Origin: Streptomyces sp. V2I9
GTDB taxonomy: Bacteria > Actinomycetota > Actinomycetes > Streptomycetales > Streptomycetaceae
NCBI RefSeq assembly: GCF_030817475.1
Contig: NZ_JAUSZJ010000002.1
Coordinates: 3,516,626 to 3,548,625 of the forward strand
DNA length: 32,000 nucleotides
Reading direction: 5' to 3'
Shown: positions 7,667 through 26,331 of the stretch, piece by piece
Layout of the letters: each line of letters opens with the position of its first letter
How positions within the stretch are numbered: position 1 is the first letter of the stretch
The notes under the pieces: model-generated
Seen by the model: only the letters and a program-made list of their open reading frames with translations
Told to the model about the DNA's origin: nothing
Databases searched by the model: none
Translations under genes and position numbers: made by a program

Positions 7667-8065
7667 CAGAGCCCCTGGATTACCGACCTTGGCCCGCCGC
7701 TCGGCGATTCGATCGCCCACCCGGTCGCCCACCGGAAGCCCTCCCTGTACGCGAGTCATCACCCTTCACTTCCGCGCACGCCAGGCCACCCCGCCCAGCT
7801 GCAACCACGTGGTTCTTGCCACCACCCAGCGCCCACACCACAGGCCGGCACTGAACACAAATAGGGCCCCAGTCGCTGACCAGTGCCTTCATGGAGGGAG
7901 CGGGGACGAGAATCGAACTCGCGCTCTGAGCTTGGGAATCAACGGTGCTTGGGCTGCCAGAGATGCTCTGACTTGGACTTTTGAATGTCGCCGGTAGATT
8001 GCCTCGGTCTTTGGGAGCCGCATCTGACCGCTGTTGTCCGCGCTGCTGGGCACGGATGGGGCACG
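7667..8065 (-). repeat. Module repeat copy C: arm, tRNA-Gly 3' fragment, degenerate hairpin, promoter region and first ~22 codons of the sseB-like gene
   Basis: Collinear with 16993..17482 and 10006..10485 at an estimated 70% identity by eye. The tRNA-Gly(CCC) 3' fragment at 7898..7938 has a 1-nt deletion. The sseB-like start reads VGDRVGDRIAERRAKVGNPGAL and then TAA at the breakpoint. Confidence 0.8.
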
Positions 8066-8311
8066 GCTGTTGAGGTCTGCTCGGCCCGATGCAAAGCTTG
8101 CCTGCACGTCGAGCCCGTAGGCGGCGCACTTCGTGTCGCCGATCCAGTCGGTTTTGCCCTGTCGCGCCTGCAAGTCGCTCAGGCCGAAGGGGGCACCGGC
8201 ATGGCGCCGTCCGAGCTCCTTGGGTTCGGCTGGTTCCAGCGGTTCTCGGCGGACTGTACGTCGAGGTGTCGGGGCGAACAGCGAGTTAGGTAGACCCACG
8301 TCCTGCCCCAT

Positions 8312-9067
8312 TCACCAGTTCTCGTAGTCCTCGATCAAGCGAGCCACAAGCTGGTGGAGCGCTGCTGCCCTGTTCAGGTCCTCCTTCTGTTCGCGCAGGG
8401 CCCGCTCAGTCGCCCGCAGCCGATGCCAGGCGTCCGGTTCCTTGTCCATCACGTCGTCGACCAGCGGGCGGGTGATCAGCGCGAGGCACTCGGCCAGTCG
8501 CCGCCTGGTGGATGGCGCCGGCGGCGCCAGGTCGGCGACGGCGTACCCGGTCGTCAGGTATCGGACAGGGTCGGCCAGGCTCCAGCCGACGACTGCCCCG
8601 GTCTGGACCAGGAGCGCCAAGCCTGGGGCGATACCGATCCGGGCATCCAGCGGAGTGTCGAGGATCGCGAGATTCCGCAGGCAGGCCAGTTCCGTCGCTT
8701 CGGGGTCGCAGCACAGCACCGCCGTCTGCGCGAGGGCAAAGTCGTTTGCCTCCTCCGCGCGGAGCCCGCCCCGGACGGCCCGGGGCTCGGTGGGAAGGCG
8801 GACTCCGGCCTCTGCCGGGGCGGATACGGCGGGCAGGTGGAGGCCCACGCCGACCAGCTCGCGGCTGCCGTTGTCGAACAGAAGGTCGTCGTTCTCCGAC
8901 CCCAGCCACTCCTGGCTTCCGAAGGTGCCGGGCAGCAGCCGCTCGAATTCCGCCCGGTCGGTGAACTCACCGACGACCAACTGGGGGATGTCGAGGGCGA
9001 GGCGCGGGGTGGACGTGAGCGGAGTATCCGTCACCACGGCGCGAAGGGTGTTCAGGGCGATTTCCAC
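8312..9067 (-). CDS. Putative cognate immunity protein of the orphan toxin cassette
   Basis: 251-aa ORF starting at GTG 9067, 12 nt after the orphan toxin stop, with GAGGTGGG upstream. No recognisable family. The role is inferred from position only. Confidence 0.55.
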   Translation of the reverse strand: MEIALNTLRAVVTDTPLTSTPRLALDIPQLVVGEFTDRAEFERLLPGTFGSQEWLGSENDDLLFDNGSRELVGVGLHLPAVSAPAEAGVRLPTEPRAVRGGLRAEEANDFALAQTAVLCCDPEATELACLRNLAILDTPLDARIGIAPGLALLVQTGAVVGWSLADPVRYLTTGYAVADLAPPAPSTRRRLAECLALITRPLVDDVMDKEPDAWHRLRATERALREQKEDLNRAAALHQLVARLIEDYENW

Positions 9068-9079
9068 AGGTGTCCCACC

Positions 9080-10005
9080 TCACCGGATCTGATCGGCGGG
9101 CGCCAGCGTGCCGCCTCGGCTGTCCGGAATGTTGCCGTTCACAATATCGTCATGGGTCACCGGCAGGCCGGGGTCGTCAGGCGATCCGCCGAATGCCTTG
9201 GCGCCGCTTTCCCCTCGGGTCCCCGAAGGACCGTAAGCGGTGATGACATCGCCCGCGCCGGCGCCCGGCCCCTTGGTGATCACGACGTCTTCTCCTTGCC
9301 GGAAGGTGAGGTTTCCTCGCTGTCCCTGGGAGTGGTAGACCGCGTCGGGGTTCTTGAGGATCTCCAGAACCCGGTCGTCGCTGAACTGGTGCCGTGTGTC
9401 GGCGTGGTAGTTGCCGGACTTCCTCATCTTCCCTTCCTGGGCCCGCTCGATCACCTGGTCGGCAACCTTCCGGGCCCTCTCCTTGGGACACTTGGGCATG
9501 AGGCCCAGCGGGTCGCACCAGGTGAAGGGGTTGTCGACGTAGGCGACCGGGTTCGGCCCTGGCGCCAGACCGAGTGGGTCGGGAGAGACGTAGCGGCCTG
9601 CTGCCGGATCGTAGTGGCGGAAGAGGTTGTAGTGGAGGCCGGTCTCCGGGTCGTAGTACTGGCCGGGAAAGCGCAGAGGGGTGTAGGCCGTACTCGTCCG
9701 TTCCCAGGCAGTGGTGCCCCAGATAGTGGTGCGGGTGCGCCAAGCTATATCGCCCGATTCGTCGACGAGTTCGGTGGGGGCACCGACGAGGTCGGTGGCG
9801 ATGGCGTAGAACCGCCGGTCGATCTCGTCCTGACGGGTGTCGGCGGTCAGGATGCGCTCGGTCTGGGCGAGAGGGACTCCGGCGCTGTGATCCCATGTGA
9901 TGACAACGGTGTTCGGCAGAGCGGACTCTCGCATGGTCTGTTCGCAGAGGGTGAGGCCGTCCCAGGCGAATCTGACCTCTTCGACGACGGTTCCACCGTC
10001 GGATG
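9080..10005 (-). pseudogene. Orphan RHS C-terminal cassette: last RHS repeats, core and an alternative toxin domain (DUF4258/BrnT-like?), lacking its own N-terminus and start
   Basis: EEVRFAWDGLTLCEQ...YTPLRFPGQYYDPETGLHYN...NPFTWCDPLGL is 106/160 identical (manual alignment) to the end of the main RHS protein. An unrelated 139-aa tail follows, with NYHADTRHQFSDDRVLEILKNPDAVY...GEDVVITKG...GDVITAYG. The only upstream start in frame is an arbitrary GTG at 10075 inside out-of-frame sseB-like sequence. Confidence 0.75.
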
Positions 10006-10485
10006 CCACCGAACTCAGCGGTCCACAACCCGCCACGGTCGTACGGCACGAGCACGAGAGTCCGCCGCAGCTCACCTACCAGGGCTTCCGGGTCACCGAC
10101 CCCGGCCCGCCGCTCGGCTATCCGATCCACCAGCGCTGACCCGTCACCCACTGGTGCCTCCCCCATACGCGAGTCGTCGCCCTTCACTTCCGCACACGCT
10201 AGGACACCACGCCCACCCGTAACCACGTGGTTCCAGCCGTCCCCACAGCCCCCACACCACGGACCGCCGCCGAATACGAAGAAGGCCCCGGTCGGAGACC
10301 GGGGCCTTCTGAAAGAGCGGGTGACGAGAATCGAAATCGCGCTCTGAGCTTGGGAATCAGCGGCTCTTACGCTGCTGGAGGGGCTCTGACCTGCGCTTTC
10401 GGATTGGTCAGGTGGATGGCTCCCGGTCTCTGGGAACCATATCTGACCGCTGTTGTCCGCTTCGCTGGGCACGGATGGGGCACGA
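10006..10485 (-). repeat. Module repeat copy B: 129-nt arm, tRNA-Gly 3' fragment, hairpin, promoter region and first ~50 codons of the sseB-like gene
   Basis: Arm 10357..10485 differs from 17354..17482 at 3 of 129 nt. tRNA fragment 10315..10356 matches 41/42. The sseB-like 5' part 10006..10151 differs at about 18 of 146 nt from copy A. Confidence 0.9.
10281..10309 (-). terminator. Hairpin downstream of the tRNA-Gly fragment (copy B)
   Basis: GAAGGCCCCGGTC-gga-GACCGGGGCCTTC, a 13-bp perfect stem. Confidence 0.55.
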
Positions 10486-10594
10486 CCCGGAGAGATCGGA
10501 CGCCACGTCCGGAGGTGCCCGGCTCTCGCCTGCGGGGAGCCGGCCCCGCCACCAGTCTCCACGGCGGCCGGTCCTCAGAGGTCTCTGACGCTGG

Positions 10595-11383
10595 TCATTC
10601 CGCTTTGCGCAGCAGCTCGATGACGGCGTTCTTCAATTCGTCGTCCGACAGGTCGTCCGGCTCCTTGAACTGCGGGTCGATGGAGTAGTCCTCCAGCAGC
10701 GAGAAGACACGATCGAGGAGCGTCTCCAAGGGATCGCGGACCCGCTCGCCCCGCTGCTGCGAACGACGACGTGCGTCGAGCCAACCGACGGCGAATTCCG
10801 CCCCCGTGCAGTGTCCGGCTGCTAGATCTCTCATCAGTGCCAGCTGCTGGCCCGTGGCGGTGGCCTCCGGAACGTCCCTCGGGTACTTCCAGGCGATGTG
10901 TCCGGGAGGAAACGACCGCGCGGTCGACTCCAGAGCGGGCCATTTCCGTGCTGCTGCCCGAGCGTAACGGGCGAAGCGAGCACGCGCCTGGTCCACTCCC
11001 TCTGGCGCTGCTCCCGCGAGGAACGCCGACGTGCCGGCGACCAAGGCGTAGCCCGGTCCGGGAAAGAGGACCGCGCCCTCCAGGTTCGCAGCGACGAGCA
11101 GAAGATCCGCAGGCAGCGAGACAAGGCCCGGATCGGCCGGCGGCAGGCTGTCCGCAGTGGCGATTGCCCCGACGGAGGGGTGAATCACCAGGACGGCGTC
11201 GGCGCCTGCAGTCCGGCATCCCTCGGTGATACGCCTGACCAGAGAGTCGTCCGTGTGACTGCCTGCCGGCACCGGGGCGACCTTCTTCTCTCCTGCCGCG
11301 AGCCATTGTCCGCTGAAGGCGCCCTGCCTGTCGAGAACAGCCATGGCGTTTCCAGCTCCGCCCTCGTTCGACCCTGTCACCAT
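10595..11383 (-). CDS. Immunity protein of the main RHS toxin: unknown N-terminal domain fused to a colicin-immunity-like C-terminal domain
   Basis: Its ATG overlaps the RHS stop (ATGGTGA at 11377..11383). The C-terminal ~85 aa (LALMRDLAAGHCTGAEFAVGWLDARRR...LLDRVFSLLEDYSIDPQFKEPDDLSDDELKNAVIELL) fits the pattern I recall for the bacterial self-protective colicin-like immunity family. Confidence 0.75.
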   Translation of the reverse strand: MVTGSNEGGAGNAMAVLDRQGAFSGQWLAAGEKKVAPVPAGSHTDDSLVRRITEGCRTAGADAVLVIHPSVGAIATADSLPPADPGLVSLPADLLLVAANLEGAVLFPGPGYALVAGTSAFLAGAAPEGVDQARARFARYARAAARKWPALESTARSFPPGHIAWKYPRDVPEATATGQQLALMRDLAAGHCTGAEFAVGWLDARRRSQQRGERVRDPLETLLDRVFSLLEDYSIDPQFKEPDDLSDDELKNAVIELLRKAE

Positions 11384-14300
11384 AGGAACCCTTTATCGAT
11401 GATGCTCTGAAATTGCTTGTCGCCCAGTTTATAGCCTGACCAGAATTTTCCGGTGTCCGCGTGTAGCATGACCATCTTCTGAGTGGTCGGGTCAATGAAG
11501 CCGATCGCTTGTCCTTGGCCTCTGTAGTCGAATCGATAAATCTTCGTGTCATCCGCTTTTATGTGAGCCCGCATGCTATCTTCGAACCTTTGGAGATTCG
11601 CCTTTTTGAGATTACCCGGCTCGTCCAGGAAATCTCCCGCGTGTGCGTGGAATTTCTTGCTCATCACACTCTGGCTGGAGAAGTCGGCTTTTTCTTCCCA
11701 CCCCCCTCGGGGGCAGGGGCCGAGCCCCAGCGGATCGGACCATGTGTGGGGGTTGTGGACGTAGGTACGGGGGTTGGGTGCAGGTGAGAGGCCGAGGGGA
11801 TCGGCTGTGAGGTAACGGGCGGTCTGCGGATCGTAGTGCCGGTGGTGGTTGTAGTGCAGGCCGCTCTCCGGGTCGTAGTACTGACCGGGAAAGCGGAGCG
11901 GCGTGTAGGTCGTGCTGTCTCTCGCCCATGTCGTACTGCCCCAGAGAGCCGCGCGGGACTGCCATCCCACGTTCCCGGTCTCATCGATGAGTTCGGTGGG
12001 GGTGCCGATCAGGTCGGTGGCGATCGCGAAGAATCGCTCGTCGATCACGTCCTGTCGCGTGTTCGAGGACAGGATGCGTTCGGTCTGGGCGATCGGGCGA
12101 ATACCGTCGTGATCCCAGGTGAGCGTGACTGGACGAGGAAGCTCCGAAGACAACGTGGTCTGCTCGCAGAGCGTGGTGCCATCCCAGGAGAAACGGACCT
12201 CCTCGCCCGTGGGGTCACCCATGTCGGAAAGCCGGACTTTGCTTGTGCGGCGGCCAAGGGGGTCATAGCGGTAGCGCCACGCGATGCCGTCCGGGGTGGT
12301 CACCGCCGTCAGGCGGTCCTCGACATCCCACGTGTACCGCCAGGTGTCGGGCTTGCGGGACAGCCGTGTCTTCCGGCGGACGGTGACCCGGCCCAGAGCA
12401 TCGTGCTCGAACCGGAGCGCGCCGGCGCGAATGATCTCCGTGCCGGTGTAGGAACGAGGTCCCGTAGCCTCCTGGCCGGGATGGGAGGCAGTCCAGGACG
12501 CCGAAGTCTGATTTCCGTCGGCGTCGTAGGAGTAGCTCTCGGCCCATCGGTCCGCTGTGACGGACACGACCCGGCCGACAGCGTCCAGGGTGAACCGCGA
12601 CATGCCGCGCAGTGTGTCGTCGACCGCTGTGAGCCGGTCGTCGGCGTCGTAGGTGTAGGACCGGCGGTTCACTGTGTCTTCGCCACTGAAGATGTGCTGT
12701 GTGACCAGCCTGCCAGCGCCGTCCCACGCCGAGTTGAAGGTCAGCTCGGGGCCGAAAGCGCGCGTCAGTTCGCGGCCCGCCAGGTCGTGGGTGAACGCGA
12801 TGGTCCGGTTGCCGCTGATCAGCTCGGTGAGCCGGTCGGAGGCGTCGTAGGCGTACCTGGTGCGCTGACCGGTGGGTGTCACGCGCTGGGTCCGGCGGCC
12901 CAGCGCATCGTAGGTATAGGTGGTGACTCGGCCGTCGGCTATCTCTACTTTCACACGGCCGATTCGGTTGTACTGATAGAGCAGTTCGCTTTCCGGCCCC
13001 ACAGCATGGAGCAGGCGCCCCGCTCGGTCGTAGGAGAAGGTCGTCACCGTGCCCGCCGCGTCTTTGCGGGTAACTCGGCCGCACGCGTCACGCTCGTACG
13101 TGATGGACTCACCCAGCGAGTTGGTGCGCGTGACTACCTGTCCGGCAGCGTCCGACTCGTAGCTGAGCGTGCGGCCGTCGAAGTCCGTCTCCGAAACGAG
13201 CCGTCCCGCAGGGTCGCGTGTGTACGACCACACCGAGCCCAGCGTGTTCCGGACCTGCGTGAGGTTGAGGTCGCCATCGTGCTGGAACTCGAAACTCGCT
13301 CCTCCGGGTGACCTGCTCGCCGAGAGAAGATCGAAGTGCGTGTACTCGAAGTGGGACTCCCGTCCGAGCGCGTCGACGTGACGCGTACAGTTCCCTTCGC
13401 CGTCGTAGGTCCAGGACTCCTTGGAACCGTCAGGGGTGGTACGACTGGCCAGCTCTCCGTCGGCTGACCATTCCAGGACCGTGGTCGCACCCAGGGCGTC
13501 GGTTATCCGGACAGGGCGACCAAGGAGGTCCCGCTGGTAACGGGTGGTGGCACCGACGGCGTCCGTGACCGCCACAGGCTGCCCTGACGCATCGCACCGT
13601 ATCGAGGTGACCGCCCCGAGCGGGTTGGTCGTCCCGGTCAGGAAACCGGCAGCGTCGTAGCTGTAGCGCGTTGTGTGCCCCATGGGATCGGTGACGGCGG
13701 TCCGGTTACCACGGTCGTCGAACTCCTGCAGCCAACGAGCACCATCTTGAGCCGTGTAGTGAGTTGGCAGGCCGAGCCGGTCGAAGACGATGCGCTCCTC
13801 ACTGCCATCGGGGTGGAGGACCGCGGTCTGTCTCCCCTCCTCGTCGTACTGGTGAGTTGTGGCGCGACCGAGTGGGTCGGTGAGCGTGAGCAGCCTTCCG
13901 CGGGTGTCGTGGGTGAAGCGAGTGGTATGGCCGAGCGGGTCCGTCGTGGAGAGGATGCGGCTGCCTCTACCGACGAGATAGCGGGTGGTGTGACCGCGCG
14001 CGGTCGTCAGAGAGGTCGTGCGGTGGCCGGTCCCCGTGTCCGGATCGCTGTAGGCGAGGGTCATCTGCAGGTGGCCGCCCTCACCTCCCTGCGCGATCAC
14101 GCGGTCGTTGTTGTCGTAGGTGTAGTCGTAGCGGTGGTTGTTGGAGTCGATCCAGGCGGTGATCCGCCCTCGATCGTCGTAGATGAAGGTGAGTGTGGCG
14201 CCGGACGGTTTCGTGACGGTGGTGAGATCGCCGCCCGTGTAGCCGTAGGACCTGATGGGGGTGGCCGCGCCTGTCTCGTCTCTCACACTCAGCACGGTGA

Positions 14301-16050
14301 TCCCCGTTTCGGTGCTGGTGAGCGAGAGGCGGTACCCGGCGGAGTGGGCGAGTTCCTGGGGTGTCCCGTCCTCGGTGCGGTCGATGCTGATGGCGTTGTC
14401 GTTGCGGTCGCTGATCTGGACGAGCCATGCGGTTCCGTCCTGGCCGGGTTCCGTTCCATGAGGAGCGGAGAAGTACTTGGTCAGTCGAGTGTCGGAGTCG
14501 GTGAGGGTGTAGTCGCCGGATTCATCACGGCTCAGGGAATTGCGTGAGGTGCCGGATTCCGGGTGGGTGGGCAACCCGGGCAAGGGGTGGGGGTAAGTGA
14601 TGAGCAGGCCGTCGGCGGTGACGTGGATGACGCCGTGGGCGTCGATCTCCAGGCGTTCGTCGACGGTGGAGGACCAGGAGGGTCCGAAGAACCGGCCGGC
14701 TGTGTACCCGGACTCGAAGCGACGCGTGAATGTCAGGGGCAGTACGCCGGGGAGCCTCACGTCGGTCTGAGGAAGGAACATGCGACCGGAGGCGAGGTCG
14801 ACCGGGTCGGTTCCCCCGCTGGTGCGCTCGCTGTCGGGGCGGTTGTGGGTTCCTTCGGGTGCGGCGCGCTCCAGCTTGCGGGCGTCGGAGGCGAGGTCGG
14901 CGGCCTCCTTCACCACTCGGGCTCCCTTGACGCCGGCCCCCGCGCCGCCGGTCGCGGCGGTGAGGGCGAGGTCCGGCAGGAGCCGGCCGAACCCCTCGGC
15001 GGGGTCCTTCATGAAGTCGGTGACCATCTGCTTGCCGGTGCCCCAGGGGTCGTTGGCGACCCGGACGAGGCCGGCGGCGGTGTTGTTGAGCGCGAGTCCG
15101 TACTCGGCGGGGTGGGTGATGTTGTACGGGTCGGTCGGGTTGACGCTCCGCGCGAAGTTCAGGATGCCTGCCGCGCCCTTGACGACGCCGCCCGCGATAT
15201 GAGTCTGGATCACCTGGTACTCGGCGAGCCCGTCCAAAGCCTGCTCGGCGTACCGGGGCTTCGGCGGCGCGGAGTCCCGGGCCGCGGTGACGGCCTTGCG
15301 TGCGATGTCGGCGGCGGTGTTGCGCTGCTTGCGCGCCTCCGCGAGCAGCGACTGCGCCTCCTCCATCCGCCCGATGCCCGGGTCCGTGAACGCGCCGGGC
15401 TTGGGCGGCAGCGAGGAGGGGTCACGGTCGTCGGCGGGCTTGGCGTTGTACGCGTCGACGGCCTTCTTGTACGTGTCCGCCTTGGCGTTGTACGCGTCCC
15501 TGGCCTCCTCCGACGCCTTGGTTCCCGCCTTCCACTTGTCGATCGCGGTCTGCGCCTGCCCCTGCGCCCACTCCACGGTCCCGGCGAAGGAGTCGAGCGC
15601 GCCGGCGGCCTTCTCGAAGGCGTCGGCTGCCTTGAACCACTTGGGCGGCTCGATGGACACGGAGTCCCGGAAGGCGTCGGCGGCCTGCCCCTTGAGCGCG
15701 GAGGAGTCGACCCCCTTGAGTCCACCGCCGACCTGGTCGAACGACCCCTGCAACTTACGGAGATGGGTCGCGGTGGACCGGATCGTGGACGGGCTGCCGT
15801 AGATGAGCTTGGTCTTGTCCTCGGTCTGCCCGAGGTCCATCTCGTCGACCTCGGCGCCCATCCGGTTCGCCACCGAGCGGGACTTCTCCCGGACCCAGTC
15901 CGCCCCGGACTCCCAGCCGACGTCCTCGAGCCGGTCGCCGGTCCAGTTCCCGGCGTCCTCGACCCGGTCACCCGCCCACTCGACACCGTCCTCGACCGCG
16001 TCCTCGACGACATCGGGCGTGATGTCACTGACGAAATCCCCGAACCCCAT
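11377..16050 (-). CDS. RHS-repeat polymorphic toxin with a T7SS-signal-type N-terminal domain and a colicin D-like C-terminal toxin domain
   Basis: 1557 aa. The N-terminal helical region reads IYGSPSTIRSTATHLRKL...GQAADAFRD...KWFKAADAFEKAAGALDSFAGTVEWAQGQA. The DUF6531-like segment is DPVDLASGRMFLPQTDVRLPGVLPL. Dozens of YD repeats follow (Y.YD..GR). The core ends YTPLRFPGQYYDPESGLHYNHHRHYDP...TWSDPLGL, followed by a 113-aa variable tip. Confidence 0.95.
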   Translation of the reverse strand: MGFGDFVSDITPDVVEDAVEDGVEWAGDRVEDAGNWTGDRLEDVGWESGADWVREKSRSVANRMGAEVDEMDLGQTEDKTKLIYGSPSTIRSTATHLRKLQGSFDQVGGGLKGVDSSALKGQAADAFRDSVSIEPPKWFKAADAFEKAAGALDSFAGTVEWAQGQAQTAIDKWKAGTKASEEARDAYNAKADTYKKAVDAYNAKPADDRDPSSLPPKPGAFTDPGIGRMEEAQSLLAEARKQRNTAADIARKAVTAARDSAPPKPRYAEQALDGLAEYQVIQTHIAGGVVKGAAGILNFARSVNPTDPYNITHPAEYGLALNNTAAGLVRVANDPWGTGKQMVTDFMKDPAEGFGRLLPDLALTAATGGAGAGVKGARVVKEAADLASDARKLERAAPEGTHNRPDSERTSGGTDPVDLASGRMFLPQTDVRLPGVLPLTFTRRFESGYTAGRFFGPSWSSTVDERLEIDAHGVIHVTADGLLITYPHPLPGLPTHPESGTSRNSLSRDESGDYTLTDSDTRLTKYFSAPHGTEPGQDGTAWLVQISDRNDNAISIDRTEDGTPQELAHSAGYRLSLTSTETGITVLSVRDETGAATPIRSYGYTGGDLTTVTKPSGATLTFIYDDRGRITAWIDSNNHRYDYTYDNNDRVIAQGGEGGHLQMTLAYSDPDTGTGHRTTSLTTARGHTTRYLVGRGSRILSTTDPLGHTTRFTHDTRGRLLTLTDPLGRATTHQYDEEGRQTAVLHPDGSEERIVFDRLGLPTHYTAQDGARWLQEFDDRGNRTAVTDPMGHTTRYSYDAAGFLTGTTNPLGAVTSIRCDASGQPVAVTDAVGATTRYQRDLLGRPVRITDALGATTVLEWSADGELASRTTPDGSKESWTYDGEGNCTRHVDALGRESHFEYTHFDLLSASRSPGGASFEFQHDGDLNLTQVRNTLGSVWSYTRDPAGRLVSETDFDGRTLSYESDAAGQVVTRTNSLGESITYERDACGRVTRKDAAGTVTTFSYDRAGRLLHAVGPESELLYQYNRIGRVKVEIADGRVTTYTYDALGRRTQRVTPTGQRTRYAYDASDRLTELISGNRTIAFTHDLAGRELTRAFGPELTFNSAWDGAGRLVTQHIFSGEDTVNRRSYTYDADDRLTAVDDTLRGMSRFTLDAVGRVVSVTADRWAESYSYDADGNQTSASWTASHPGQEATGPRSYTGTEIIRAGALRFEHDALGRVTVRRKTRLSRKPDTWRYTWDVEDRLTAVTTPDGIAWRYRYDPLGRRTSKVRLSDMGDPTGEEVRFSWDGTTLCEQTTLSSELPRPVTLTWDHDGIRPIAQTERILSSNTRQDVIDERFFAIATDLIGTPTELIDETGNVGWQSRAALWGSTTWARDSTTYTPLRFPGQYYDPESGLHYNHHRHYDPQTARYLTADPLGLSPAPNPRTYVHNPHTWSDPLGLGPCPRGGWEEKADFSSQSVMSKKFHAHAGDFLDEPGNLKKANLQRFEDSMRAHIKADDTKIYRFDYRGQGQAIGFIDPTTQKMVMLHADTGKFWSGYKLGDKQFQSIIDKGFLW
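11380..11717 (-). other. Variable C-terminal toxin domain (CT1) of the RHS protein, a low-GC module
   Basis: Hand count gives 159 G+C in 320 nt over 11381..11700 (about 50%) versus 45/60 in 11701..11760. The peptide is SKKFHAHAGDFLDEPGN...YRFDYRGQGQAIGFIDPTTQKMVMLHADTGKFWSGYKL. Confidence 0.7.
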
Positions 16051-16053
16051 GGC

Positions 16054-18169: not shown

Positions 18170-18356
18170 CAAACCAATCATATTGGAGTATGCGAGGGTC
18201 GGCTGAGTCACAGGCCCCTGCCTTGATGGTTGCGACCGCATGCGTCGGGTGATGACAGAGCAGCCGCTCTCCGGCCGTCCACTGGGGGGCAAGGATTTGG
18301 ACCGACGCCGCTGGAGGGCAAGCGAAAGGCCCCGGTCTCTGACCAGGGCCTTCATT

Positions 18357-19241: not shown

Positions 19242-19640
19242 ATGGCGTAAGGGTATAGCCAAGGCCGTTGTTCACGCTGGCGGTTCCGACAAGGTCGGCG
19301 GAGCGGGTTTGGCCGGTGTCCTGCCCGGTTTGGGGTCGGGCATGATCAGGGGGCCGTACGCTTGCCGCAACTCGGGCAGGCTGTGATCCTGCCCGGAATT
19401 TGAACGAGTGGCCCCCTGGTCTTGCTCGATGCGGAACCCGAACCGGGGAGGTGGCTAAAGCCGTGGAGCCGACCGCCCCGGCCACAGCGGGTTTCCTCCC
19501 CACCATGGTGCTCGCTCCAGCCGTGCGACCGGCGGTGAGCCGGGGAGCGCGCGGCGAGCGGAGCGAGCCACCTTGATGAAGTAGGGAAAGTTCTACCGTG
19601 CTGGAAACAGGTGCCTGCCGCAGCTTGTGTGTCGAACTTG

Positions 19641-19675
19641 GCCGTCGACCGCCTTCAGCTGGAGCGGTCGACGGC
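19641..19675 (-). terminator. Hairpin after the MazG-like gene
   Basis: 12-bp perfect stem GCCGTCGACCGC / GCGGTCGACGGC with an 11-nt loop, 16 nt downstream of the stop at 19691. Confidence 0.5.
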
Positions 19676-19690
19676 TACGTCCGGAGGCTG

Positions 19691-20020
19691 TCAGGCCGCC
19701 GCAGCGGCCTCGCGGCCCCTGCGCGTCCGGCGGTGGAGGATCTCGTCGAAGGTGGCGCGGGCGCCCGTGGGGTCGATGTAGTGCATGGCCAGGAGGGCGG
19801 CGATGACGGAGCCGACCAGGTCGTTCTGGACCTCGGACCAGGTGTGGTCGTCGCCGCAGGTGGTGAGGCCCTTCAGGCCGTGGAGGGCGTGTATGGCCTC
19901 GCCGGCTTCCTCGGCGACCTTGCCGACCTGGAGGGCTTTGAGCTCCTCGTCGGGGAGGTGGGCGCCGGCTGCTCGGCAGACGGCGGAGAGCTTCTCGATG
20001 TTGTCCCACAGGGTGTCCAC
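19691..20020 (-). CDS. MazG-like nucleotide pyrophosphohydrolase family protein
   Basis: GTG 20020 with GGAGG 6 nt upstream. LWDNIEKL...LQVGKVAEEAGEAIHALHGLKG...EVQNDLVGSVIAALLAM fits the all-alpha MazG-like pattern (E..GE ... E/D..D). The 331-aa track ORF upstream of this start overlaps ugd and is a shadow frame. Confidence 0.65.
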   Translation of the reverse strand: MDTLWDNIEKLSAVCRAAGAHLPDEELKALQVGKVAEEAGEAIHALHGLKGLTTCGDDHTWSEVQNDLVGSVIAALLAMHYIDPTGARATFDEILHRRTRRGREAAAAA

Positions 20021-20046
20021 GTCGGACCTCCGGTCGATGGGTTCGG

Positions 20047-21369
20047 CTATTCCTGTGCGGGTCGTCCGAGCTGGCGTACGGTCCATCCGGCCATGCGCCA
20101 GGCGTCGGCGTCGATGAGGTTGCGGAGGTCGACGAGGACTTGGTCCGCGACCAGTGGGGCGAGGGCCTTGGGGTCGGCCTCGCGGAAGTGGGGCCATTCG
20201 GTGGCCAGGACGATCAGCTCGGTTGCCGCGAGGGAGTCTTCGAGGCTTTCGCAGTAGTCGAGTTCGGGGTGGCGGCGCAGTGCTGTGGGCACGGCGTGCG
20301 GGTCGTGGACGGTGACGGTCGCGCCGCGCTGGTGCATGAGGGCGGCGATCGCCAGGGCGGGGGATTCGCGGACGTCGTCGGTACCGGCCTTGAAGGACGC
20401 GCCCCAGACGGTGATGCGTACGCCGTCGACGGGTCGGCCGAGCGTCTGCTCGATGAGCTTCAGTGCGGCGGTGGGTCGGGATTCGTTGACCTCCTCCGCC
20501 GCGCGCAGCATGGTCGCTGCTTCGGCGGCGCCCAGGGTGCGGGCGGAGGCGGTGAAGGCGCGGACATCCTTGGGGAGGCAGCCGCCGCCGTAGCCGGGGC
20601 CGGCGTTGAGGCCGCCGCGGCCGATGCGGGGGTCCAGGCCGATGGCTTCGGTGAGCTGCTGGACGTCGGCTCCGGCGGCGGTGCACATGTCGGCGACGCC
20701 GTTGATGAAGGAGATCTTCATGCCGAGGTAGGCGTTGGCGGCGCCCTTGATGAGTTCGGCGGTGGCGGGGTCGGTCACGAACAGCGGGATGCCGTTCGCC
20801 AGGAGGGGTGCGTAGACCTCACGTACCGCGTCCTCGGCGCGGGCCGAGGGCACGCCCACGACGATGCGGTCGGGGCGCAGGGTGTCGTCGATGGCGTGGC
20901 CCTCGCGCAGGAACTCGGGGTTCCAGACGACCTCCACGTCCTCACCGGCCGGAGAGAGCCGGGCGAGGAGAGCACCGAGGTCGCGGGAGGTGCCGACGGT
21001 GACCGTGGACTTGCCGATGACGACCGTGGGGCGGGTCAGGTGCGGGGCCAGGGCGCGGGCGGCGCCGAAGACCTGTCCGGTGTCGTAGCTCCGCCCGTCC
21101 GCGTCGATGGGCGTGCCCACGGCCAGGAAGTGGATGTCGGCGAACTCGGCTGCCTCAGCGAGGCTGGTGGTGAACCGCAGGCGGCCGGTGGCGGTGTGGG
21201 TGCTGAGGAGTTCGGGCAGGCCGTCCTCGTAGATGGGGCACTCGCCGGTGTTGAGGCGGTCGATCTTCGCCTGGTCCAGGTCCACGCCGATGACCTCGTG
21301 GCCGATCTCGGCCATGGCAGCGGCGTGGGGAATGCCCAGGTGACCACAGCCGATGACGGATACGCGCAT
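20047..21369 (-). CDS. ugd: UDP-glucose 6-dehydrogenase
   Basis: MRVSVIGCGHLG Rossmann start, NPEFLREG, catalytic GYGGGCLPKD, and the C-terminal WGASFKAGTDDVRESPA UDP-binding domain. GGAAAGGAG precedes the ATG. Confidence 0.9.
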   Translation of the reverse strand: MRVSVIGCGHLGIPHAAAMAEIGHEVIGVDLDQAKIDRLNTGECPIYEDGLPELLSTHTATGRLRFTTSLAEAAEFADIHFLAVGTPIDADGRSYDTGQVFGAARALAPHLTRPTVVIGKSTVTVGTSRDLGALLARLSPAGEDVEVVWNPEFLREGHAIDDTLRPDRIVVGVPSARAEDAVREVYAPLLANGIPLFVTDPATAELIKGAANAYLGMKISFINGVADMCTAAGADVQQLTEAIGLDPRIGRGGLNAGPGYGGGCLPKDVRAFTASARTLGAAEAATMLRAAEEVNESRPTAALKLIEQTLGRPVDGVRITVWGASFKAGTDDVRESPALAIAALMHQRGATVTVHDPHAVPTALRRHPELDYCESLEDSLAATELIVLATEWPHFREADPKALAPLVADQVLVDLRNLIDADAWRMAGWTVRQLGRPAQE

Positions 21370-21476
21370 GGGTCGACGCTCCTTTCCTTGTCCCTCGCCC
21401 GCCCAGGGGAGTCCGGGCCGGCCGGGTGCGTCACGCTAGCGCCAACACCCGGCGCGGCCCTCTTCGTGCAGGTGGA

Positions 21477-22751
21477 TCAACCAGCTTGCTGTTTCAGCAG
21501 GTTGACGAGGGCGGGCAGTGCCTCGGCGGCGGTTGCCCGGCACACCAGGTCGCCGTCCTGGGGGCCTTCCAGGGGGTACGGCATGAACTGGCCGTCGCGC
21601 CAGAAGCCCTCCGGGTCCAGGTAGACGACCTGCATGCCGCGAGCGCGGGCTCGGGCCTGGACCTTGCGGCGGTCGGCGTGCAGGCCGACGACGAGGAGGG
21701 CCTTGGCGCTGTCCACCCACTCGACGTCGGGTACGGCCTGGTCGTAGCGGCGCATGAAGCACTCGTCGAGCCCGGCGCGCGCCGCGAGCACGTCGAAGTT
21801 GTTGGTGATGACAGGGCCGACGAGATGCCCGGCGTCCTTCAGTTCCTTGAGCGCCCACATGGCCGGGGTCGGCTCGGCCAGGAAGCATGCGCGGAACATC
21901 TCCACGAATTCCGCCGCCTTCTCCTCCGGCTCTGTCAGCAGCTCGTGGAGGAGGGTGTCCGCTGTCGGGGAGAGGGTGAAGCGGTGTTCCCGCGGTTCGT
22001 GGCCCTGGCGGTCGGTGACCCGGTAGATCTCGTGGAGACGGTGCAGGGGCGGGATACCCGCCTCGACCGACGTACCGCATCCGATCTCCACCTGGAACGG
22101 CAGCAGGTCCGCGAGGACGGACAGGTCCGTGACGCGGGTCGGCGTACCGGGGCGGTCCTTGCACCTGATCCCGGTGGAGAGGACGTTCCACGGCAGCTGC
22201 CGCACCGAGGGCGGCGGTGCGTAGGACACCGAGGCGATCTGCACGTCCAGGCTCCGGTAGCCGACGGGGAGGGTACGGCCCGCAGCGGCGTCCTGGGGGT
22301 GGACGTCGTGCTCGGTGATCCGGCACTTCAGATCCCGACGTGTCCATAAGAATCCACCGGGAGCCTCCTTCCAGCCGCCGGTGGCGAGCGAGTCCCACAG
22401 GGCGTCGTGGTGCGCGTCGATCTCGTCCGCGGGAGCGGTAGCGGAGTGGTAGAGGTACAGGTCGGTCAGGCCGATGGCCGGCGCAGCGGTGGTGGGGACC
22501 AGGCCGTACCGGTAGCGGTAGTGGATGATCCGCCGCCGGGCGTCGTCGTCGGCAGTCCAGCCGCTCTGTTCGGCCGTGGCCTTCTCCTGCGTACGGCGCC
22601 AGATGCCTTCCTCGATGTAGCGGGGTCGGTCGGCATCGCCGAAGTAGGTCTTCCAGACCTGCTGTTGGTCGGGGGTGAGCTGGTCGATGACGATGTACGG
22701 GATGTCCACGATCTCTCCCTGGAGAATCACGCCTGGATGTTCCGGGTGCAT
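21477..22751 (-). CDS. Protein with an unknown ~230-aa N-terminal domain and a C-terminal SIR2-like (DHS-like NAD-binding) domain
   Basis: ORF trimmed to ATG 22751 (ACGGAG upstream). IGCGTSVEAGIPPL resembles the GAGxS..GIP loop, VITNNFDVL the TTNYD/TQNID motif, and LLVVGLHADRR the VGxS..D strand. No HG histidine motif or Zn-ribbon cysteines were seen. Confidence 0.6.
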   Translation of the reverse strand: MHPEHPGVILQGEIVDIPYIVIDQLTPDQQQVWKTYFGDADRPRYIEEGIWRRTQEKATAEQSGWTADDDARRRIIHYRYRYGLVPTTAAPAIGLTDLYLYHSATAPADEIDAHHDALWDSLATGGWKEAPGGFLWTRRDLKCRITEHDVHPQDAAAGRTLPVGYRSLDVQIASVSYAPPPSVRQLPWNVLSTGIRCKDRPGTPTRVTDLSVLADLLPFQVEIGCGTSVEAGIPPLHRLHEIYRVTDRQGHEPREHRFTLSPTADTLLHELLTEPEEKAAEFVEMFRACFLAEPTPAMWALKELKDAGHLVGPVITNNFDVLAARAGLDECFMRRYDQAVPDVEWVDSAKALLVVGLHADRRKVQARARARGMQVVYLDPEGFWRDGQFMPYPLEGPQDGDLVCRATAAEALPALVNLLKQQAG

Positions 22752-22806
22752 GGCAGGCTCCGTTTGCTGGGAACGTGGGGTGAACGTCCCGGACAGCGGA
22801 GCGGAG

Positions 22807-23016
22807 TCAGTGGTCGGAGGGCGAGCTCGCGTCCGTTGAGACGGCGGCGGGCTGGTGACCGAGGCCGTTGAGGAGCGGGACGGCCTGCTCACGCAGTGCC
22901 CAGGCCGGGCCCACCAGGCCGACGACGGCCAGAAGCGTGAGCGCGATGCCTCCGCCTTCGGGGTGCACGGAGCGCGGCGCGGCTTTTCGGGCGTGGCGTC
23001 GCCGAGGCCCGGTCAC
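22807..23016 (-). CDS. Possible 69-aa single-pass membrane peptide
   Basis: GTG 23016 overlaps the upstream stop (GTGA at 23013..23016). A basic N-terminus is followed by the hydrophobic IALTLLAVVGLVGPAW. Coding status is uncertain. Confidence 0.3.
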   Translation of the reverse strand: MTGPRRRHARKAAPRSVHPEGGGIALTLLAVVGLVGPAWALREQAVPLLNGLGHQPAAVSTDASSPSDH

Positions 23017-23459
23017 GGGGTGCCGCCGAGGGCCCGTCCGTGTGCGTCGACGAGGCGGCTGGTCTGCTGGTGCAGCCACTCCAGCTCGACAGAGGTGAGG
23101 ATGAGCGCGCCATCGAGGGTCGATCCGTCGTCCAAGTGGAACTCGATGGGAACCGATCCCTGCCGGGCACGCGGGTCGTAGACCGCGTCCCGTCCGGCCG
23201 AGAGCGTGGCGTGGGTGGCCCTCACCGGCACGGGACGGAGCGTCGTCCCGTCAGCGGGCGCGGACCACGGGGCTCCGCCCCCGGGCGGACGCAGGTGGTA
23301 CGTCGTAGCGGAGCCCTCACCGGGGAGAGCGACCACGACCCCGAGACGGCCATCGCGAGCGCTGTCCGTGGCGAGGTCGCCGAGCCGTGGAACGAACGGT
23401 GCTGCCGTACCTAACTCGGCTCCCTGCGAGGGAAGATGAGAAGAACGTCGTCGCGTCAT
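23013..23459 (-). CDS. Hypothetical 148-aa protein
   Basis: ORF with the segment GDLATDSARDGRLGVVVALPGEGSATTYHLRPPGGGAPWSAPADGTTLRPV, which resembles small SH3/Tudor-like Streptomyces proteins that I cannot name. The RBS is weak. Confidence 0.45.
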   Translation of the reverse strand: MTRRRSSHLPSQGAELGTAAPFVPRLGDLATDSARDGRLGVVVALPGEGSATTYHLRPPGGGAPWSAPADGTTLRPVPVRATHATLSAGRDAVYDPRARQGSVPIEFHLDDGSTLDGALILTSVELEWLHQQTSRLVDAHGRALGGTP

Positions 23460-23514
23460 GCCCCGAAGTTAGGGACAGGACGGGCCTCGAATATGAGCCG
23501 GAGGAATACGACCC

Positions 23515-24744
23515 CTATCCGTCCAGGTGAAAGCGGTCGGACATGTGCCGCAGCTTCTCCCTCGTGGCTGCCCGTTCCGCGTAGACGATGCTGCGAAGCG
23601 TTGAACGGGCGATGGGGTGGTTCCGTACGAGCTGCGGCGCGATCCGCTCAGCCGTCTCCAGCTCGGTGAGGGCCTTTGCCCGGTTCCCGTCCCACAGCCA
23701 GGCCCGTGCGACGTCCATGTGGTGGTGGCCCTGACGGGAGTTGGGTAGTGCCCCGACCAAGCTCGGGCTGGTGCGGCGGTTTATCTCCAGAGCTTTGCCC
23801 TGCTTGCCCATTTCGAGGGCCACGCTGATCGCGTGGATCTGTACGTTTCCGGCGGAGAACGTCAGCGAATGCCGGTCGTACACCGGTGCGCTGACGTACG
23901 CGTCCATGCGTTCGGCAGCGTCCTTCGCGTGTCCGATCCGGTCCTCCGCTTCCGATGGGCGGTTGGCCCGAGCGGCGGAGATGGCCGCTCGGAGCTGAAG
24001 CGTGCCCCAAGCCCGTACGGCCAGCGGATCACCGTGCTCGTACGGCTGTTGCACCGAGGCGATCGCCTTGTCCGAGAGGGTCAGGGCGTCGGTCCAGTCG
24101 GCCGTCGCCCACATGTCCCAGACGCGCATCCAGTCGGCGACGGCAGGCAGCACCGGATCTCCCGACAACCTGGCTGACCACGCGGCCCGTTCGCACGCCA
24201 TGGCCACCAGCTCGGGGTGTCCGAGGGCGTGCGCGGCGGTGTGCGCGAACTTGCAGCACACGGCGTAAATGGCATACGCCTCTTCCCGCTCGTGCCCGTC
24301 CGAGTCCTCCGCCAGGCTGCGCGCTTCCCGGAACAGGTCCGGGAGAACTTGGAGGATCGCGGCGTTGGAGGCGGTGTCCCGCAGGCGGTGCAGCCGGGTC
24401 ACCTCACGCCATAGCTGTGAGGCCGGCCGGGGAACCCCGTCGAAGACGGGAACGAGGTCGTAGCGGCGCAGCTCGCGCAGGATCGACGAGGCGGCGATCT
24501 GCCACTGGCTGTCGTCGGGGGAGCTGCTGTACGGGCGTCCGATCAGGTCGTTCGGATGGACGTGCAGCTCTGCGGCCACCTGGTTGAGCAGCCCGACCCG
24601 GTCCAGTTCGATCAGGCCCCGTTCCATCTTCGACACCCAGCCCTGTGACTTCCCCAGGGCCGTCGCCAGGTCGGCCTGCGGCATGCCCAGTCGCAGCCTC
24701 GCCCTGCGAGCGCGTTTGCCGATCTCCTCGGCTTCCTCCAGCAT
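23515..24744 (-). CDS. XRE-family HTH regulator with a long helical/TPR-like C-terminal domain (WhiJ-like type)
   Basis: HTH segment RLRLGMPQADLATALGKSQGWVSKMERG. ATG 24744 is preceded by GGGAGG at 7 nt, so it is preferred over ATG 24825. Confidence 0.85.
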   Translation of the reverse strand: MLEEAEEIGKRARRARLRLGMPQADLATALGKSQGWVSKMERGLIELDRVGLLNQVAAELHVHPNDLIGRPYSSSPDDSQWQIAASSILRELRRYDLVPVFDGVPRPASQLWREVTRLHRLRDTASNAAILQVLPDLFREARSLAEDSDGHEREEAYAIYAVCCKFAHTAAHALGHPELVAMACERAAWSARLSGDPVLPAVADWMRVWDMWATADWTDALTLSDKAIASVQQPYEHGDPLAVRAWGTLQLRAAISAARANRPSEAEDRIGHAKDAAERMDAYVSAPVYDRHSLTFSAGNVQIHAISVALEMGKQGKALEINRRTSPSLVGALPNSRQGHHHMDVARAWLWDGNRAKALTELETAERIAPQLVRNHPIARSTLRSIVYAERAATREKLRHMSDRFHLDG

Positions 24745-25044
24745 CAGGACACCTCCCGGCCGCCGGACGATCCGGCGCGACCGCCGGTCTGTCCGTACAG
24801 AGTTCGTCTCCTGCACGGTACCCATGACGCGGCTTCAGCGTGAGGCGAGCTGCCAGGACGGTGGCGGCGACGGGCCGTGTACCGCTGTCCCGTCCTGAAC
24901 GGCCGGTCCAGGGCCGGAGGCGCTTCTGTCCGCCATCAGTGCCCGGACTGCCACCAGGCATTGAACCTGAAGCCGCCGGTGCCGAGCGACAGCGGATCAT
25001 GGGGATGAGGGACATTCCACGTCGCACACCGCCGGAGGCAGCCA

Positions 25045-25887
25045 GTGATCACCGTGACTGTCCTCCACCCTGGAACCATGGGCGCGGCGATCACCGCCGA
25101 GCTCGTCGCCGGCGGCCATGAGGCACTGTCGGTGACCAAGGGGCGCAGTGAGAACACCTGGCTACGCGGGAGGGAAGCCGGTGCCACGGCGTACGACTCG
25201 CTCGCGGAAGCGCTGACCCGAAGCGCAGTCGTTCTCTCGGTGTGCCCACCACAGGCGGCGGAGGACGTTGCAGCGGCGGCGGCCGCGCACGGCTTCGCGG
25301 GGGTGTACACCGATGTGAACGCCATCAGCCCTCAACGCGTACGGCGCATCGCCGACGAGATCCGCCCCGGCTCCGCAGTCGTCGACGGTGCCGTTTTCGG
25401 TCAGCCGCCAGGCGAGGGGCGTGCCACACGGCTCTATCTCGCAGGCGCCGATTCTGCCGTCGAGCTGGTGGCGTCGCTGTTCACGGACTCTGTGCTGCAC
25501 GTGTGCCGCGTCAGGGACACACCCGGTTCCGCTTCCGCTCTGAAGATGGCCTTTGCCAGCTACCAGAAGGCCGCCCGCACCCTCGCCGGCATCGCTCACG
25601 CGCTCGCCGACGCCCATGGAGTCGGTGCCCAGCTCACGGCCGAAGTCGAGATCATGGTCTCCGCGATCCTCTCCGACTCCGAGTATCTGCCGAGCGTGGC
25701 AGCCAGGGCCTGGCGCTGGGCGCCGGATATGGAAGAGATCGCCCCTACGCTCCGCGCGGCTGACCTGCCCCCGGACATGGCCGAGGCCACGGCTCGGGTG
25801 TTCGCTTATTGGGAGCAGGACAAGGACGAGTACGACTTGACTGTCGTGCATGCCCTCTCCCAGCTCCAGCCTGGAAGAAGCAGTTGA
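25045..25887 (+). CDS. NAD(P)-binding 6-phosphogluconate-dehydrogenase-like oxidoreductase (DUF1932-type C-terminus)
   Basis: VTVLHPGTMGAAI Rossmann start and ASALKMAFASYQKAARTLAG. GTG 25045 has GGAGG 6 nt upstream. Confidence 0.75.
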   Translation: MITVTVLHPGTMGAAITAELVAGGHEALSVTKGRSENTWLRGREAGATAYDSLAEALTRSAVVLSVCPPQAAEDVAAAAAAHGFAGVYTDVNAISPQRVRRIADEIRPGSAVVDGAVFGQPPGEGRATRLYLAGADSAVELVASLFTDSVLHVCRVRDTPGSASALKMAFASYQKAARTLAGIAHALADAHGVGAQLTAEVEIMVSAILSDSEYLPSVAARAWRWAPDMEEIAPTLRAADLPPDMAEATARVFAYWEQDKDEYDLTVVHALSQLQPGRSS

Positions 25888-26226
25888 CTCGTTCACACCG
25901 ACCGCACCGCCGAGGGGCGGTCGCCTCCGCCCAAGGCGAGACGTAGTAACGGTGGGCTCGGCCGACGCAGCAGGTTCCCGCGAAGCCGTGGGGCGTAGAA
26001 CGGCGCTGCGCGTCTGTGCCGTCAGAACTTGCTGGCTTGGAGAGGGCCTTTGCGAGAGCCGCTATACGCACCAGGCCGGTGTTCTTGCGGGGGGCCGGGC
26101 ATCATCGAGGGCGCATTCGTCTGCTGCAACATGCGTCCGGGGCCGTGGCTTGCGGTCTCTGCGTCACCCCATTGCGGTGGGCGCGGAACGGGCACGCAAA
26201 CCTAGACAGATACCAGACACCAAACA

Positions 26227-26251
26227 AGGCCCAGGTCGATGACCTGGGCCT
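26227..26251 (-). terminator. Hairpin immediately downstream of tRNA-Gly
   Basis: AGGCCCAGGTC-gat-GACCTGGGCCT, an 11-bp stem 6 nt after the tRNA 3' end. Confidence 0.6.
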
Positions 26252-26257
26252 CAGTCG

Positions 26258-26331
26258 TGGAGCGGGTGACGAGAATCGAACTCGCGCTCTGAGCTTGGGA
26301 AGCTCATGTTCTACCATTAAACTACACCCGC
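26258..26331 (-). tRNA. tRNA-Gly (anticodon CCC), CCA encoded
   Basis: Reverse complement is GCGGGTG TA GTTT AATGGTA GAAC A TGAGC TTCCCAA GCTCA GAGC GCGAG TTCGATT CTCGT CACCCGC T CCA. This folds as a full cloverleaf of 74 nt with discriminator U. Confidence 0.95.

Follow-up and report, generated by a model that had tools for sequence, protein, structure and literature searches.

How did a single tRNA gene come to have three further copies of its own 3' end beside it, distributed through accessory DNA in which no integrase gene was found? The question is raised by a 32,000-nt stretch of the Streptomyces sp. V2I9 genome (contig NZ_JAUSZJ010000002.1; the whole stretch is called the window here). 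In the whole window, ARAGORN and Rfam (RF00005, 69.6 bits) identified a single tRNA-Gly(CCC) gene, which is intact and encoded on the minus strand at positions 26258 to 26331. The 3' 42 nt of this gene, from the anticodon loop to the discriminator (TTCCCAAGCTCAGAGCGCGAGTTCGATTCTCGTCACCCGCTC in tRNA sense; 26258 to 26299, minus strand), were found in repeat comparisons to recur as three partial copies, or pseudo-cores, all four copies lying in one orientation: pseudo-core 1 at 17312 to 17353 (42/42), pseudo-core 2 at 10315 to 10356 (41/42, one G>T), and pseudo-core 3 at 7898 to 7938 (one A deleted). An earlier reading of the window from its letters alone (the sequence-only reading) had reported these copies with the same positions, orientation, and identities. 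Shuffled controls for core repeats gave 0 matches, and none are expected by chance. Direct repeats that match the 3' part of a tRNA gene exactly and bound inserted DNA, as seen here, are a feature of the attachment (att) sites of AICEs (integrative and conjugative elements from actinomycetes), in which the repeat at the intact gene is the attL core. The tRNA-Gly fragments very probably represent attR-type junctions, each a P arm plus the 42-nt core, of serially stacked AICE-like elements that have since decayed.

Core, arm, and hairpin at the tRNA fragments

The 42-nt core was correctly delimited in the sequence-only reading, and the unit that is repeated proved to be longer, consisting of an arm, the core, and a covarying hairpin. 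The arm of about 129 nt that had been described was present on the tRNA-sense 5' side of each of the three pseudo-cores, on the minus strand (arm 1, 17354 to 17482; arm 2, 10357 to 10485; arm 3, 7939 to 8065). Arm 1 holds the motifs CGTGCCCCATCCGTGCCCAGC, GCGGACAACAGCGGTCAGAT, and GCAGGTCAGAG, with a TGA that abuts the core. Arms 1 and 2 are 95% identical despite unrelated adjoining genes, and their outer boundary is sharp. On the other side of the core copies stand G+C-rich hairpins, again on the minus strand, at 17278 to 17307 (pseudo-core 1; a terminator-like stem that covaries across loci), 10282 to 10311 (pseudo-core 2), 7863 to 7892 (pseudo-core 3), and 26226 to 26255 (within the P' arm at the intact tRNA), and a fifth, orphan copy lies at 18326 to 18355, upstream of an antitoxin gene. 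The three copies linked to rearrangement hotspot (RHS) genes extend the repeat by about 250 nt of the leader of gene 1 of the RHS operon; in self-BLAST, positions 16993 to 17482 aligned with 10006 to 10485 at 87% and these in turn with 7667 to 8065 at 75 to 77%. A conserved AACCACGTGGTT-like palindrome, which could be an operator, is found upstream of gene 1 and about 90 nt 3' of all three pseudo-cores (approximately 17215 to 17234, 10221 to 10238, and 7801 to 7820).

Related loci were collected by an exact scan for one 20-mer of the arm, with one genome per species, and were compared as 8-kb windows picked by that 20-mer; at least 120 Streptomyces loci were obtained. Among the matches listed, the core followed the arm 20-mer in 116 of 144 occurrences (at a distance of exactly 127 nt in 86), and the length of the arm was fixed at 127 ± 1 nt. 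A window-like arm was present, among the same matches, at 161 of 195 pseudo-cores; 115 of 203 pseudo-cores were perfect, up to five core copies (intact tRNA counted) occurred per 8 kb with a median spacing of 1.5 kb, and the intact tRNA next to dcd fell inside 17 loci. Pseudo-cores that lacked a window-like arm kept the short motifs AACAGCGGTCA, CAGGTCAGAG, and GTGA beside the core, plus the hairpin.

Conservation was measured as mean pairwise identity over 49 units from different genomes, each consisting of a toxin-antitoxin-like (TA-like) cassette, arm, and core. Identity of the core was 0.95; in the toxin gene next to it, codon positions 1 and 2 came close to this value (0.96) and third positions stayed below it (0.825), so the core and the arm motifs are under constraint. 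The arm motif GCGGACAACAGCGGTCAGAT, which was not used for ascertainment, gave 0.875, neighboring noncoding DNA gave 0.57 to 0.73, and the DNA after the hairpin gave about 0.35 to 0.41, i.e., was unrelated. The constraint could be due to continued use as recombination sites, to frequent fresh integrations, or to conversion against the tRNA. As to the choice set out in the sequence-only reading, between RHS operons mobilized in trans and fixed relics, conservation of the pseudo-cores on a level with nonsynonymous positions leans towards sites that may still be used.

Mobility genes in the window and in relatives

No integrase, excisionase, replication, or transfer gene was detected in the 32 kb by Pfam scans or by tblastn with the complete gene set of the AICE at locus L125 (loci are designated by L numbers), which upholds the absence of such genes noted in the sequence-only reading. 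The tblastn searches returned nothing below E = 0.18; the window thus holds remnants and not an AICE, and RepSA-type replication and FtsK-type transfer genes were not found between its att sites. In about 1 Mb of loci, a regular expression for canonical tyrosine-recombinase motifs (HxLRH...LGH...Y) gave no match, a false negative because the integrase family of protein P0008 (below) has YDLRHT...AGQSS...Y. When translated open reading frames (ORFs) were read, a recurrent ORF with the tyrosine-recombinase catalytic region YDLRHT...AGQSS...IYQH was found, database homologues of which carry PF00589. Among the matches listed, tblastn with this ORF located integrase fragments in at least 25 to 30 loci, a count that depends on the tblastn thresholds. 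Most of the fragments checked read towards a core or the intact tRNA from a position immediately 3' of it. At locus L060 (positions 7142 to 7849), two small genes that look like a TA pair, the second HTH/XRE-like, stand at the truncated N-terminal end of an integrase pseudogene; our guess is that they are an insertion.

A full-length homologue of the recurrent ORF, P0008 (355 aa, 78% identical), is encoded in Streptomyces sp. ICN441 (L125), where its gene stops 52 nt short of the 3' end of the dcd-adjacent tRNA-Gly(CCC). The element comprises genes for GntR, NUDIX, FtsK/SpoIIIE, DUF2637, SpdB, RepSA, HTH_17 (Xis), and, last, Int (P0008), and a second core lies 10.7 kb from the tRNA core. This order matches the gene organization of pSAM2 given in passages of PMC2440964 (korSA-like GntR, pif-like NUDIX, FtsK-type Tra, SpdB, RepSA, Xis, and Int). 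A second integrase homologue, P0016, occupies the same site in Streptomyces peucetius (L126), in an island of 8.2 kb that lacks rep and tra genes. Both elements are bounded by the same 42-nt identity block, and the tyrosine integrase gene adjoining the att site, which the window lacks, lies 52 to 55 nt from the tRNA in these relatives. The nearest plasmid-borne relative of the integrase is on an 11-kb Micromonospora rosaria plasmid (NC_006910; 42% identity), which we take to be the AICE pMR2. BLAST of the arm and core against PLSDB plasmids returned the core or hairpin only and never the arm, with no integrase near the two core/hairpin matches inspected, and the arm 20-mer was not found in a viral contig collection.

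When aligned, the far-end arms of L125 and L126 and the three arms of the window have motifs in common at the same offsets from the core. These are a pair of CGTGCC repeats with a spacing of 11 nt (at about -128 and about -117), two CGG(T/A)CA repeats about 10 nt apart (at about -104/-95), TCAG.G (GCAGGTCAGAG in the window arms), and the TGA abutting the core; the repeats are candidate arm-type integrase-binding sites. Thus, the likeness to the att-core geometry of tyrosine-integrase (pSAM2-type) elements drawn in the sequence-only reading was borne out by the same tRNA, core, and arm offsets, and two intact integrase-bearing elements with this core and these arm motifs, of a kind for which that reading had suggested a search, exist at tRNA-Gly(CCC)-dcd in other Streptomyces.

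The integrase-side arm could be traced as well. In L125 and L126, the P' arm consists of the hairpin, TGTCTGGACCTGTCTAAG, and then CGTGCCACATCCGTGCC within the last integrase codons. Alignment with the attL of these elements delimited a surviving P' arm for the tRNA-proximal block of the window at 26155 to 26257 (minus strand), with the hairpin at 26226 to 26255, TGTCTGG..CTGTCTAG, and a degenerate CGTGCC...TCCGCGCC that is the counterpart of the final codons of the integrase gene that was lost. What is kept of the integrase-side arm beside the window tRNA amounts to about 95 nt, including about 40 nt of degenerate integrase 3' end. Beyond the hairpin, the P' motif was not found after any of the three pseudo-cores of the window, and elsewhere it was kept in 2 of 212 cases among the matches listed.

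Serial integration and the alternatives

The blocks vary INDEPENDENTLY among the loci compared (L054, L012, L098, L094, and L022), being present or absent independently, with breakpoints at cores. The tRNA-proximal block recurs at 96% identity, P' arm included, in S. durocortorensis (L054), where it follows a pseudo-core, an arm, and a TA-like cassette and not the tRNA, so that one more cassette lies between this block and the tRNA. A core stands in L012 between the genes on the side of ugd (UDP-glucose dehydrogenase) and the TA-like cassette, in L098 there is no TA-like cassette between the Ugd-side genes and the RHS element, and in L094 a full-length, core-bounded RHS element is flanked by two TA-like cassettes. 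The internally deleted RHS element of the window (block B, 7939 to 10314) shares 95% identity with the 3' end of the full-length L094 element and 92% with L025, and only 73 to 87% with the complete RHS element of the window itself (block C, 10357 to 17311), a remnant of which (90% identical) lies directly at the tRNA in L022, beside an integrase fragment. One and the same cassette, hairpin-to-cargo junction included, has different neighbors in different genomes. The relative L001 (GCA_044742245.1) matches the window at 96% identity from the dcd side until the tRNA's final base, after which a different island follows, with a Shedu-type SduA_C protein encoded directly 3' of tRNA-Gly (L001 positions 104 to 1644), and so the site also receives defense genes. 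The sequence-only reading had proposed tandem accretion and a comparison of the locus across relatives; core arrays are common at the locus, integrase fragments stand beside cores and tRNAs, and blocks come and go independently, in agreement with that proposal.

The order of events in this strain, as we infer it, would be as follows. Elements of the P0008 integrase family would have integrated serially into tRNA-Gly, each with its own core, hairpin, and arms. In each integration, the incoming element would rebuild the tRNA with its own core and hairpin and would move the older element and the displaced core further from the tRNA. Deletion would then strip int, xis, rep, and tra and leave cargo between hairpin and arm plus core, namely, the TA-like pair, RHS toxin/immunity operons of the T7SS (type VII secretion) kind with their deletion derivatives, and metabolic genes. 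With Int and Xis acting in trans, any of the three arm-plus-core sites could recombine with the attL that survives (tRNA and P' arm, 26155 to 26299), and we infer that such cis-mobilization would release nested composite circles of about 8.9, 15.9, or 18.4 kb.

Several points weigh against this account of stacking and decay. Selecting loci through an exact match to an arm 20-mer makes that motif look more conserved than it is, and no integrase of the P0008 family was seen in the 32-kb window. The three RHS blocks may be unable to excise singly because the P' motif beyond the hairpin is lacking. They also have the hairpin/gene-1 junction in common, so some change in copy number by unequal crossing-over between cores or arms is possible.

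Much of the process itself is documented. Integration of AICEs at tRNA 3' ends, tandem arrays, and joint or separate excision are described in passages of PMC2440964, PMC3218068, and PMC9513070, with tandem AICEs in S. avermitilis and Frankia (passages of PMC3218068); accretion and decay of AICEs and DAICEs at Streptomyces tRNA hot spots, with truncated integrases between direct repeats, were reported by Choufa et al. (2022; PMC9513070); and cis-mobilization of AICE remnants has already been predicted (passages of PMC9513070 and PMC3218068). The array is therefore a new example of a documented process of AICE accretion and decay. Its distinctive features are the target, tRNA-Gly(CCC) next to dcd, which is not named as a target in the AICE survey passages (PMC2440964 and PMC3218068); the fine-grained, almost integrase-free arrays in many species; the constraint on the scars; and T7SS-type RHS operons and "orphans" as att-bounded cargo.

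The resemblance to known systems is partial in each case. With pSAM2-type AICEs, the relatives of the window share a tyrosine integrase gene beside the att site, reading towards the tRNA, whereas the window has att scars and cargo and none of the pSAM2 genes. AICE accretion arrays likewise place several elements between identical direct repeats at one tRNA; the window-type blocks, in contrast, are small (median, 1.5 kb) and numerous, almost all of them lack int, and a complete P arm remains on each at a fixed distance; this pattern is found in more than 100 genomes at the species level, with T7SS-type RHS toxin operons among the cargo. The blocks at 17354 to 26257, 10357 to 17311, and 7939 to 10314 are att flanked and without integrase or transfer genes, as are cis-mobilizable elements (CIMEs). 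The CIMEs of streptococcal integrative and conjugative elements are likewise derived from an integrative element and potentially movable after accretion with a functional one, but they belong to another host phylum, and the transfer system here is of the FtsK type, acting on double-stranded DNA. In the ssrA-linked tandem islands of Dehalococcoides (passages of PMC3146451), repeated 3' ends of a small-RNA gene also delimit islands at one site, with a different target gene and integrase family.

Orphan arrays of RHS or other polymorphic toxins also contain a full rhs gene followed by truncated modules of C-terminal toxin and immunity genes. Unlike in such arrays, each module in the window has its own arm and core and a gene-1 5' remnant, which argues for whole elements that were placed by integration and internally deleted and not for C-terminal displacement. 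For polymorphic toxins, a testable other route to RHS "orphan" arrays is thereby offered, in which integrase-stacked whole elements are internally deleted later. More generally, the 25-kb accessory region receives a mechanistic explanation, with the tyrosine integrase of pSAM2-organized AICEs that target tRNA-Gly(CCC)-dcd as the missing enzyme, and more than 100 Streptomyces genomes, counted at the species level, contain the att-bounded modular array, with scars that are conserved like coding sequence. The arm-plus-core site (about 170 to 230 nt), together with its cognate integrase, is a possible integration tool or a marker predicting still-mobile accessory blocks.

The integrase-less blocks might, alternatively, be no dead relics and instead form a working, integron-like array of cis- or trans-mobilizable cassettes, a possibility that we regard as tentative. 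A resident or incoming AICE of the P0008 family would provide Int and Xis, blocks would be excised, reshuffled, and reinserted at any core, and a polymorphic RHS toxin/immunity repertoire would be built by site-specific recombination. The near-coding conservation of the pseudo-cores and of GCGGACAACAGCGGTCAGAT, the fixed length of the arm, the near identity of arms 1 and 2 up to a sharp boundary with unrelated cargo, and the recurrence of one hairpin-to-cargo junction among different neighbors are all consistent with such an array, as is the joint and separate excision of tandem AICEs in Frankia (passages of PMC3218068). However, the P' arm-type motif has been lost from most cassettes, no integrase was found in the window, and frequent fresh integrations or gene conversion against the tRNA could also conserve the cores. 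Like an integron, the array gathers short, promoter-poor cassettes at one site; every cassette ends in a recombination site, and newcomers are expected beside the primary site. It differs in having neither an IntI-type integrase alongside nor an attI/Pc platform, and its recombination sites, whose arms lack conserved pairing, are lambda-type att sites with arm motifs and not folded single-stranded sites of the attC type. The broader proposal of a functioning platform at tRNA-Gly(CCC) in many Streptomyces, where AICE integrases acting in trans would capture, reorder, and export integrase-less cassettes that have each kept a complete P arm and a pristine core, is unlikely; if it were true, RHS toxin/immunity, toxin-antitoxin, and accessory genes would be diversified by site-specific and not by homologous recombination.

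RHS loci gather orphan toxin/immunity modules through homologous recombination, and the repeats could accordingly be imagined as products of local segmental duplication or unequal crossing-over of the arm-core-RHS 5' unit during orphan formation, with no site-specific integration. The roughly 250 nt past the core and the 5' part of gene 1 that the three RHS-linked copies have in common fit this origin, which we nevertheless hold to be improbable and which the cross-genome data largely refute. Arms 1 and 2 flank unrelated cargo, and the same arm and core bound TA-like, BBE, and PA14 cassettes as well as integrase-bearing elements. The nearest relative of block B (95%) is a complete element elsewhere, and the block C remnant of L022 adjoins the tRNA and an integrase fragment; together with the arrangements in L054, L012, and L098, these contradict an origin by local duplication alone.

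That the arm and core are a structured RNA gene, or a tRNA-like module in 3' untranslated regions that stabilizes or processes cassette transcripts, is barely credible and was dropped, since Rfam matched the true tRNA alone in the window and nothing at the pseudo-copies, RNAalifold on 120 diverse units found no conserved pairing in the arm (only the downstream hairpin covaried), cargo genes occur in both orientations relative to the arm and core (e.g., PA14), and the arm and core demonstrably end the integrase-bearing elements L125 and L126. The strong conservation of the core, the T-arm inside it, and the covarying terminator-like hairpin behind it would fit such an RNA role.

Gene content of the blocks and flanking DNA

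The commonest cassette across loci was a TA-like pair directly 5' of an arm and its core (81 of 120 loci among the matches listed, a count biased by locus selection). Other cassettes contained RHS C-terminal/immunity modules, complete RHS elements, a BBE oxidase gene, or a PA14 gene, and cargo was heterogeneous across loci, including a helicase, beta-lactamase/VanZ, an amidase, a short-chain dehydrogenase/reductase, regulators, a sigma factor, and insertion sequences (ISs). An "all-toxin array" was considered and rejected because cargo such as the helicase, amidase, and dehydrogenase/reductase goes beyond toxins or defense.

In the window, the division into core-bounded blocks made in the sequence-only reading was retained, and their number rose above the four counted there. 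The orphan hairpin at 18326 to 18355 and comparison with L012 divide the block at 17354 to 26257 into two cassettes. The cargo of the tRNA-proximal cassette (19246 to 26154, mixed strands; 95 to 96% identical in L012 and L054) includes, according to Pfam, a DUF1932 NAD-binding protein (25045 to 25887, plus strand), an XRE-HTH protein (23515 to 24825, minus), a weak SIR2-like protein (21477 to 22892, minus), and Ugd (20047 to 21369, minus), along with a small ORF region. Next to it, an IS was delimited at 18356 to 19245 (plus strand) by Pfam, sequence, and comparison with L012; it encodes a DDE_Tnp_4/HTH_Tnp_4 transposase (18387 to 19226, plus) and has terminal inverted repeats of about 15 nt (GAGCCCTTTCCAACC/GAGGGTTTTCCAACC). 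The IS abuts the orphan hairpin and occupies the position that core and arm hold in L012; its insertion seems to have been accompanied by loss of that core through deletion. The TA-like cassette itself (17483 to 18355, minus, including the orphan hairpin) encodes a CcdA/RHH-like antitoxin (about 17921 to 18181, minus; CcdA, 23.3 bits) and a putative PIN-like toxin (about 17523 to 17930, minus; PIN, E = 0.11). The VapC part of the vapBC label used in the sequence-only reading is unverified at this E value.

Block C carries the complete RHS operon that had been recognized there, on the minus strand at 10486 to 17277, beside arm 2 and pseudo-core 2. Genes 1 (16704 to 17273) and 2 (16054 to 16707) had no family match. 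They precede a 1,557-aa RHS toxin (11377 to 16050) with an N-terminal T7SS_signal domain (PF21725), DUF6531 (PF20148), 14 RHS repeats (PF05593), an RHS core (PF03527), and a Colicin D C terminus (PF11429; tRNase type), and downstream lies a candidate immunity gene (10595 to 11383; weak Colicin_immun match, E = 0.0046). This is the architecture of a T7SS-associated RHS polymorphic toxin, with a weakly assigned immunity candidate. Orthologous complete RHS elements are core bounded in L094, L098, and L121. Block B contains the internally deleted RHS element (8066 to 10314, minus; Pfam and self-BLAST), in which a gene-1 5' remnant (10006 to 10309) is fused to an RHS C-terminal part (9080 to 10075; PF03527) and is followed by a candidate immunity gene (8312 to 9067).

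Left of 7897, the decayed cassette of the sequence-only reading was confirmed as one or more decayed RHS elements at 5363 to 7897 (minus), in which self-BLAST located a gene-1 5' remnant (7667 to 7892) and a gene-1/gene-2 remnant (5869 to 6184) and a weak RHS_repeat match marked RHS-repeat remnants (5487 to 5610). The array probably extends beyond this cassette to about 1120, because the BBE/FAD-oxidase gene region (3823 to 5362, minus) and the PA14-domain gene region (1120 to 3718, plus) correspond to arm-and-core-bounded cassettes in other genomes (L023 and L064 for BBE; L102, L107, and L119 for PA14). In the window, the arm and core of the BBE region are deleted, and none are left at the PA14 region. 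Between the two convergent genes, at 3719 to 3822, lies a strong bidirectional terminator-like palindrome (GGGGAGGGGACCGAAGAGTTCTTCGGTCCCCTCCCC), in the position occupied by arm, core, and P' region in other genomes.

The SIR2-like, XRE, TA-like, gene-1, gene-2, and immunity proteins were left without an assignment by PADLOC and NCBIfam. Exact-protein look-ups returned no match for Dcd (longest-ORF start), P0013, P0021, or P0046, and for the phosphoribosyltransferase they returned only a 1.2-kb read contig identical to the window. The read-assembly contig L002 (Logan SRR35247537, 1,187 bp) is 100% identical to positions 27192 to 28378. Between the tRNA and dcd, C-rich repeats of 15, 30, and 37 nt (CCCCGGCCCCCAAACCCCCGG-like) occupy 26928 to 27161. 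A G+C-rich unit of 31 nt is repeated about six times in tandem at 28330 to 28516, between the phosphoribosyltransferase and Yip1-domain genes, with a different copy arrangement in L001. Three copies of a 37- to 38-nt repeat are found at 30938 to 31053, near the 5' end of an FG-GAP-repeat gene (29662 to 31086, minus strand).

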